DNA of 64,000 nucleotides from an uncultured Candidatus Saccharibacteria bacterium. GTDB lineage: Bacteria > Patescibacteriota > Minisyncoccia > Phycocordibacterales > WO2-35-19. The stretch covers positions 682 through 64,681 of the forward strand of contig CAZFHL010000001.1 of assembly GCA_964519145.1 (NCBI GenBank), in the 5' to 3' direction. Positions 7,487 to 7,537 of this stretch are shown in pieces. Under the pieces are notes generated by a model, which was not told the origin of the DNA, did no database searches, and saw only the letters and a list, made by a program, of their open reading frames with translations. The position numbers and the translations under genes are program-made. How positions within the stretch are numbered: position 1 is the first letter of the stretch; every line of letters starts with the position of its first letter.

Positions 7487-7537
7487 GTTCGTTTCGCTCT
7501 CTTGAGCTCATCAGTATAGATACATCTATAGACGAGA
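7487..7537 (-). ncRNA. minimal type III hammerhead ribozyme candidate (copy 2, intact core)
   Basis: Minus strand reads tctcGUC|tataga-tgta-tctata-CUGAUGA-gctc-aaga-gagc-GAAAC-gaac. GUC cleavage triplet. 6-bp stem I with tetraloop. CUGAUGA. 4-bp stem II with tetraloop. GAAA. 4-bp stem III (acga/tcgt). Confidence 0.5.

Follow-up and report, generated by a model that had tools for sequence, protein, structure and literature searches.

Two type III hammerhead ribozyme motifs beside a small orphan ORF in a Patescibacteria chromosome

Does the chromosome of a Patescibacteria bacterium carry a self-cleaving ribozyme behind a small orphan ORF, and is such an element still at work or in decay? The question is raised by two same-strand copies of a short motif in the window (the whole 64-kb stretch of DNA analyzed here), which a first reading of the letters (hereafter the original prediction) had taken for minimal type III hammerhead ribozymes, one complete (copy 2) and one with an altered core (copy 1). 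Hammerheads cleave 3′ of position 17, and their products carry 2′,3′-cyclic phosphate and 5′-OH ends. The DNA belongs to a Patescibacteria (CPR) host, whose CTP synthase shares 70–72% identity with the enzymes of Taylorbacteria and Zambryskibacteria. The features of the locus are collected in Table 1.

Table 1. Coordinates, strand, and evidence for the features of the hammerhead locus in the window
Feature	Coordinates	Strand	Evidence or remark
Copy 2, complete type III hammerhead	7489..7535	-	Sequence; RF00008; model R1; strict descriptor
Copy 2 abutting hairpin, GAGGAGU-ACCUAUAA-ACUCCUC, 7 bp, 8-nt loop	7536..7557	-	Sequence; folds; one compensatory pair relative to copy 1
AT-rich tail that follows the ribozyme of copy 2, shared with copy 1	7440..7478	-	Repeat D3, 77% identity
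Truncated ORF remnant before copy 2, homologous to the last ~24–30 codons of the 84-aa ORF	7568..7640	-	Alignment A1; repeat D2 (73%)
Copy 1, same hammerhead architecture, GUA and G12 to A	5635..5681	-	Sequence; RF00008; R1
Copy 1 hairpin, GAGGGAU/ACCCCUC, one A·C mismatch	5682..5703	-	Sequence; folds
AT-rich tail that follows the ribozyme of copy 1, shared with copy 2	5588..5626	-	Repeat D3
84-aa orphan ORF	5715..5969	-	TTG start in the window, ATG in sister-strain contig L001
Strain-variable segment: copy 2 and three plus-strand genes (62-aa ORF, TspO, and 149-aa ORF)	5969..7671	.	blastn of L001 against the window

Architecture of the two copies

The minus strand of copy 2 (7538–7486) reads CUCUCGUC followed by UAUAGA-UGUA-UCUAUA-CUGAUGA-GCUC-AAGA-GAGC-GAA-ACGA-ACU, and holds all invariant bases of the type III core (C3, U4, G5, A6, N7, G8, and A9; G12, A13, and A14; and H17 after U16.1). 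The C3–A9 segment CUGAUGA lies at 7514–7508, G12, A13, and A14 at 7495–7493 followed by A15.1 at 7492, and the GUC triplet at 7533–7531, with U16.1 at 7532 and C17 at 7531. Stem I (7530–7525 with 7520–7515, UAUAGA/UCUAUA, 6 bp) is closed by the loop UGUA, and stem II (7507–7504 with 7499–7496, GCUC/GAGC, 4 bp, G10.1–C11.1 being 7507 and 7496) by the loop AAGA; stem III is open and consists of 4 bp between UCGU (U7535 to U7532) and ACGA (A7492 to A7489). All of the elements that the original prediction had picked out, i.e., GUC, CUGAUGA, GAAA, and stems of 6, 4, and 4 bp, are present in the sequence. Copy 1 (5684–5632, minus strand) likewise has the architecture and the two changes ascribed to it, with GUA replacing GUC (A17 at 5677) and AAA replacing GAA; the A at position 12 (5641) is the single core position that departs from the type III consensus.

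In both copies, stems I, II, and III have 6, 4, and 4 bp and are Watson–Crick throughout, and the core-adjacent pairs are canonical (U1.1–A2.1, G10.1–C11.1, and A15.1–U16.1). Stems I and II are loop-closed and the 5′ and 3′ ends lie in stem III, giving type III topology in the alignments to both the Rfam model RF00008 and our model R1 (model positions 1–54 and 1–56). Bacterial hammerheads were accepted by Perreault et al. 2011 on canonical core-adjacent pairs (1.1–2.1, 10.1–11.1, and 15.1–16.1) and the absence of mispairs in short stems (PMC3088659), and both copies are paired in just this way.

The copies are parts of a duplicated module of ~200 nt, present as two same-strand direct repeats 1,854 nt apart. 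They are identical at 50 of the 53 ribozyme positions, including the whole of the ribozyme stems, and identity is highest in the ribozyme and hairpin (88%) as compared with the ORF tail (73%) and the downstream tail (77%). The hairpin of copy 2 (7557–7536) directly adjoins the 5′ strand of stem III and is present in both the minimum-energy fold and the fold constrained to the hammerhead. Its proposed covariation between the copies holds weakly, in that one pair is compensatory (G–C to A–U) and the other change is one-sided, copy 1 having the A·C mismatch. After stem III of copy 2, a run of six U residues (7486–7481) lies just upstream of the AT-rich tail.

In the minimum-energy fold of copy 2, UCGUC is paired with GAUGA, and the hammerhead-constrained fold is less stable by 6.7 kcal/mol in an energy model that leaves out the tertiary interactions of the hammerhead core. 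For copy 1, a hammerhead-compatible fold lies within 0.5 kcal/mol of the minimum. Fast hammerhead cleavage at physiological Mg2+ needs a tertiary contact between loop 1 and loop 2. As to the loops UGUA and AAGA, the 3′-terminal A of loop 2 and the U at the boundary of stem I and loop 1 are common to both copies and to the relatives aligned in A3 (below).

G12 is the general base of the hammerhead, and its replacement by A in the full-length ribozyme lowers the rate 10^5 to 10^6-fold (PMC2553840). The expectation that G12 to A cripples catalysis fits this measured loss. Cleavage of copy 1 would therefore be 10^5 to 10^6 times slower, and this copy is predicted from its sequence to be nearly inactive, an effectively disabled paralog. 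The change is shared by copy 1 in both sampled strains (the window and L001); the locus is 99.6% identical overall between them, and the ribozyme of L001 also scores 46.6 bits with R1.

Statistical support and relatives

The best Rfam match for both copies is RF00008 (Hammerhead_3), which covers them end to end with scores of 34.1 bits for copy 2 (E-value, 7.2e-5) and 30.0 bits for copy 1 (E-value, 1e-3). The Rfam search proposed with the original prediction thus gave low E-values at bit scores under the RF00008 gathering score of 48.5 bits; at the Rfam gathering thresholds, the whole window reports two tRNA-Gln genes and no hammerhead. A sub-threshold Rfam result is one half of the outcome that was to refute the original prediction, the other half being a failure to cleave in vitro. 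This gathering score is too strict for the compact subgroup with a short stem III, because clean hammerheads from Saccharimonadales (L015 and L007, described below; stem III of 5–9 bp) also reach just 38–42 bits with RF00008. The other independent test of significance, besides the Rfam match, was a simulation. A strict descriptor, which asked for the core, for minimum stem lengths of 6, 4, and 4 bp, and for any base but G after U16.1, gave two matches in the real window versus none in 300 simulated 64-kb windows of matched dinucleotide content; with the minimum lengths loosened to 4, 3, and 3 bp, there were 0.013 matches per simulated window. A chance origin of both hammerhead motifs is excluded.

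The covariance model R1, built from 21 hammerheads from outside the window, scored copy 2 at 54.4 bits (E-value, 1.6e-15) and copy 1 at 46.6 bits (E-value, 7.6e-13), the next match in the window having 18 bits; these scores are partly circular, as is the covariation in the alignment A3, because the search pattern that brought in the seeds (UAUA..UAUACUGAUGAG..CRAAAC) was itself taken from the window, and a stem filter was applied to what it retrieved. In A3 (21 relatives, chosen with the stem filter), both partners vary in 14 of the 18 pairs, and the paired share of the cells in these stem-filtered sequences is 88.5%, versus 28–43% with the partners slid. Together with the core, the core-adjacent pairs, and the significant Rfam E-values, the R1 scores uphold, at the level of sequence, the reading of both copies as type III hammerheads. 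The window holds no further hammerhead beyond copies 1 and 2, in keeping with the two copies first counted. A weak hammerhead-like match on the plus strand (20149–20208; R1, 18 bits; E-value, 0.0035; stems of 4, 4, and 4 bp; U10.1–A11.1) is AT-rich, sits within a 553-aa ORF (18923–20584), and is probably a chance match.

Hammerheads of the same class occur in other genomes. A pattern scan of representative genomes, a set that does not include the source genome, returned 24 matches, about the number expected by chance, and only those in L007 and L015 are real hammerheads. Both are Saccharimonadales (CPR) MAGs, with ribozymes at 1129–1183 and 1850–1905 of L015 and at 1682–1737 of L007. One of the L015 ribozymes reads UCGUC-UAUAUCU-UAU-AGAUAUA-CUGAUGAG-CUC-UGAUA-GAG-CGAAACGA, very near the window copy, and each of the two lies ~50 nt past the stop codon of an orphan ORF and ahead of the next promoter. 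In metagenomes, at least about 30 distinct complete type III hammerheads were found among the 120 loci listed, and many contigs carry several of them (six in 6.5 kb of L083, and three each on L039 and L049). The same class is found on IMG/VR viral contigs, at times two per contig, and the compact subgroup with a short stem III appears to be common both in metagenomes and on viral contigs.

Most of these relatives lie in short spacers, at 20–80 nt from the stop of the same-strand ORF that precedes them and, in many cases, with the next ORF beginning 10–30 nt beyond the ribozyme. Among nine ORFs neighboring the hammerheads of L015 and L083, eight have no match in Pfam or PHROG and one matches a PHROG of unknown function. 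In four loci (L015, L007, L142, and L109), promoter-like sequence for the next gene lies downstream of the ribozyme, which stands where a terminator would sit. In L083 (JACCEB010738147.1, 1–6509), the six type III hammerheads occupy spacers of co-directional ORFs without Pfam matches, several of them having a small hairpin that adjoins a 3-bp stem III and a Shine–Dalgarno sequence 20–30 nt downstream; the arrangement looks like ribozyme-punctuated polycistronic processing. An abutting upstream hairpin was considered as a class-wide feature and rejected, since hairpins of at least 5 bp adjoin 24% of the hammerheads versus 14% of control positions; it belongs to some subfamilies only, such as that of L083. 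The search pattern is also fitted by GATAGGCAAACCTATACC[C/T]TGCCAATATACTGATGAGGAATTTGAAAAAGAATCAAAAC in L034, L043, L051, and at least about 40 other gut-metagenome loci, which is without hammerhead stems and is probably a conserved coding segment; such loci account for much of the metagenome listing.

The small ORF and its strain-variable surroundings

The stop codon of the 84-aa orphan ORF lies 33 nt ahead of the start of stem III of copy 1. Among the 5.8 billion and 1.84 billion (representative) proteins searched, its sole homolog is P0001 (98% identical), and neither it nor the 149-aa ORF has a match in Pfam, PHROGs, NCBIfam, or PADLOC. The ORF region is ~50% GC in a genome of ~32% GC. The 351-nt RNA of this region (5625–5975, minus strand) has a fold z-score of −4.1 and repeated GAGGAGA motifs, and the region could be a structured RNA instead of, or besides, a coding sequence. 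In the last 24 codons of the ORF, the differences between the copies are distributed 5/4/11 by codon position, a pattern that would weakly favor coding.

The remnant before copy 2 keeps the last ~17–30 codons, with a longest ATG-started frame of 17 aa (7621–7568); minus-strand ORFs reaching 40 aa are absent from 7568–7640. The small-ORF family of the original prediction is accordingly reduced to one orphan ORF and its cut-down duplicate. The intact ribozyme (copy 2) lies behind the truncated ORF and the full-length ORF carries the disabled ribozyme (copy 1), a swap between ribozyme and ORF that suggests a pattern fitting decay.

The 1.7-kb segment at 5969–7671 is absent from L001 (1234–1240; sister strain, SRR22387978), in which an inositol-monophosphatase-family gene directly adjoins the full-length copy-1 unit. 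A simple crossover between the copies was rejected as the source of this indel because the repeated block contains neither junction of the indel (7671/7672 and 5968/5969). L001 also departs from the window sequence left of 4997, marking a strain-variable spot. Within the segment, the 62-aa ORF (6022–6210, plus strand) aligns with positions 1–60, out of 139, in the phage family PHROG 7772 of unknown function (E-value, 1.8e-15) and may be a truncated phage-derived gene. It is the sole phage-related sign near the ribozymes; no integrase, recombinase, or recognizable prophage was found near them, and blastn of the whole unit against phage and plasmid collections gave no match. The minus-strand unit with copy 2 at its 3′ end faces convergent genes, and no strong minus-strand promoter is predicted upstream of the ribozyme.

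On the plus strand lies a tRNA-like RNA (5425–5497), followed by a clean intrinsic terminator (5506–5532). Its acceptor-like stem comprises 9 bp (GTTCCCCTG/CAGGGGAAC), its T-arm reads GAGGGTTCGACTCCCTT, and ACCACC stands at the 3′ side. The RNA has no ARAGORN call and weak Rfam matches (tRNA-Sec, 20 bits; YrlA, 17 bits), is kept in L001, and converges on hammerhead copy 1.

Searches via the 84-aa ORF or the neighboring genes found no orthologous locus beyond the near-identical strain L001, and because this strain is the sole ortholog, with two paralogs alone besides, the locus itself is without covariation evidence. The loci of CTP synthase relatives (82–93% identity) are not syntenic, and the DNA of the 86% and 93% relatives is without a hammerhead. 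For the inositol-monophosphatase-family gene, identity falls from 91% (L001) to 39% or less in the next relatives, with no hammerhead nearby, and five related Patescibacteria loci (L147–L149, L151, and L152) have no hammerheads.

Proposed function, alternatives, and known systems

The reading that we favor, with a probability of roughly 0.6, is that both copies are prokaryotic/phage type III hammerheads beside small non-conserved ORFs, of which copy 2 cleaves in cis and copy 1 is effectively disabled. From the position of the core, we infer that copy 2, if its strand is transcribed, would cleave itself between C7531 and U7530, either as the RNA is being made or shortly afterwards. The RNA upstream of the cut, with the ORF remnant, would then end in the 7-bp hairpin and UCGUC with a 2′,3′-cyclic phosphate, the hairpin lying 5 nt from the new 3′ end, and a 5′-OH would begin the other product, made up of the 47-nt ribozyme body and the AT-rich tail. 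By such 3′-end processing, copy 2 may set and insulate the 3′ end of a short transcription unit, at the usual position of a terminator and facing a convergent gene. The abutting hairpin may stack on the 4-bp stem III, guard the new 3′ end against exonucleases, or do both. The short stem III, the competing fold, the prediction of no strong promoter, and the swap between ribozyme and ORF count against the activity of copy 2.

Less probable, though still to be reckoned with, is that the two copies descend from a real hammerhead borne by a phage or mobile element and that neither is functional any longer, copy 1 being dead and copy 2 the leftover of a partial duplication. Such decay would agree with the fixation of G12 to A in both sampled strains, the place of copy 2 behind a mere ORF fragment, its short stem III and competing fold, and the finding of no more hammerheads in the window or the five related Patescibacteria loci; the locus is also strain-variable, beside a tRNA-like element, and has an ORF matching the first half of a PHROG family alone. 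Against a relic stand the conservation of the ribozyme, higher than elsewhere in the module (50 of 53 positions versus 73% in the ORF tail), the retention of every invariant base in copy 2, and the compensatory change in the hairpin. We regard as improbable a further reading, in which the hammerhead likeness is secondary and the 200-nt module acts otherwise, either at the DNA level as a recombination or cassette boundary or as a terminator-like RNA. The module does mark one end of the 1.7-kb segment present in the window and absent from L001, and copy 2 has its U6 run after stem III and an outer helix (AAGGAGGU/ACUUUUUU) that can enclose hairpin and ribozyme. Yet the indel junctions fall outside the repeated block, no integrase or recombinase was found nearby, copy 1 lacks the U run and outer helix or has them in weak form, and a full core with three correctly placed helices is unexpected by chance.

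The least credible of the alternatives takes the ribozyme stretch as the coding sequence of another small peptide (40 aa, TTG start, 5705–5583). This ORF is in the list of open reading frames of the window, and a Shine–Dalgarno-like AAGGAGG lies just upstream in copy 2, but the TTG is only 2 nt past AAGGAGG, an indel shifts the frame after the ribozyme, and the equivalent frame in copy 2 does not reach 40 aa. The differences between the copies in this stretch fall mainly on second codon positions (2/5/1), with every changed codon inspected by hand being non-synonymous; on this codon-position pattern the peptide reading was rejected, and the same pattern counts for the hammerhead explanation.

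Returning to the reading of both copies as hammerheads beside small ORFs, a broader and rather doubtful extension is that CPR hammerhead modules (ORF tail, hairpin, and ribozyme) are portable 3′-end cassettes that replace intrinsic terminators and move with strain-variable gene cassettes. It bears on this extension that one module edges the 1.7-kb segment (TspO and two small ORFs) missing from the close relative. In such a scheme it is conceivable that the two ribozymes, which share a strand at a distance of 1,854 nt, set free an RNA intermediate, either excised or circular.

Should copy 2 cleave, a Patescibacteria/CPR chromosome would join the hosts of type III hammerheads, and the two copies would offer a natural matched pair, G12 versus A12 in near-identical contexts, for the effect of cleavage on the transcript of an adjacent small gene. 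Element type and setting have already been described for bacteria and phages; taken alone, neither the kind of element nor its place is surprising. The CPR host and the hairpin-capped architecture with a short stem III are modest extensions, and the compact subgroup is one that the Rfam gathering score misses. Hundreds of bacterial hammerheads were described by Perreault et al. 2011, many near integrases or prophages and several flanking single genes, and were proposed to process long transcripts (PMC3088659). The review of de la Pena et al. 2017 describes prokaryotic hammerheads flanking ORFs for small non-conserved proteins, with a persistent phage link and a role still open (PMC6155905). 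Among the papers searched, none relevant to hammerheads in Saccharibacteria, CPR, or Patescibacteria was found.

Among known systems, the retrozymes and other repeats with paired hammerheads that release circular RNAs resemble the window in having two type III hammerheads, here in direct repeats of ~200 nt. It is a resemblance only: one ribozyme of the window is G12A, the intervening genes are antisense, the host is bacterial, reverse-transcription signals are absent, and the boundaries of the strain indel do not match the cleavage sites. The window copies share with RF00008 (clan CL00010) the core (C3–A9, G12–A14, A15.1–U16.1, and H17), the three-helix junction, and the type III topology, whereas they differ in a stem III of 4 bp versus 7 in the model, a loop 2 shorter by 4 nt, A12 in copy 1, and sub-threshold scores. 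In comparison with the small-ORF hammerheads of prokaryotes and phages, the window has one ribozyme per unit and not a flanking pair or triplet, no co-directional ORF after the ribozyme, and no nearby integrase or prophage, and it lies on a Patescibacteria/CPR chromosome. It agrees with them in the intergenic position beside a small orphan ORF, in the occurrence of the class on viral and multi-hammerhead contigs, and in the proposed processing of transcripts. The Saccharimonadales hammerheads of L015 and L007 have a longer stem III (5–9 bp), no abutting hairpin of the window type, and unrelated upstream ORFs, but are very similar to the window copies in sequence and stand, like them, after an orphan ORF.
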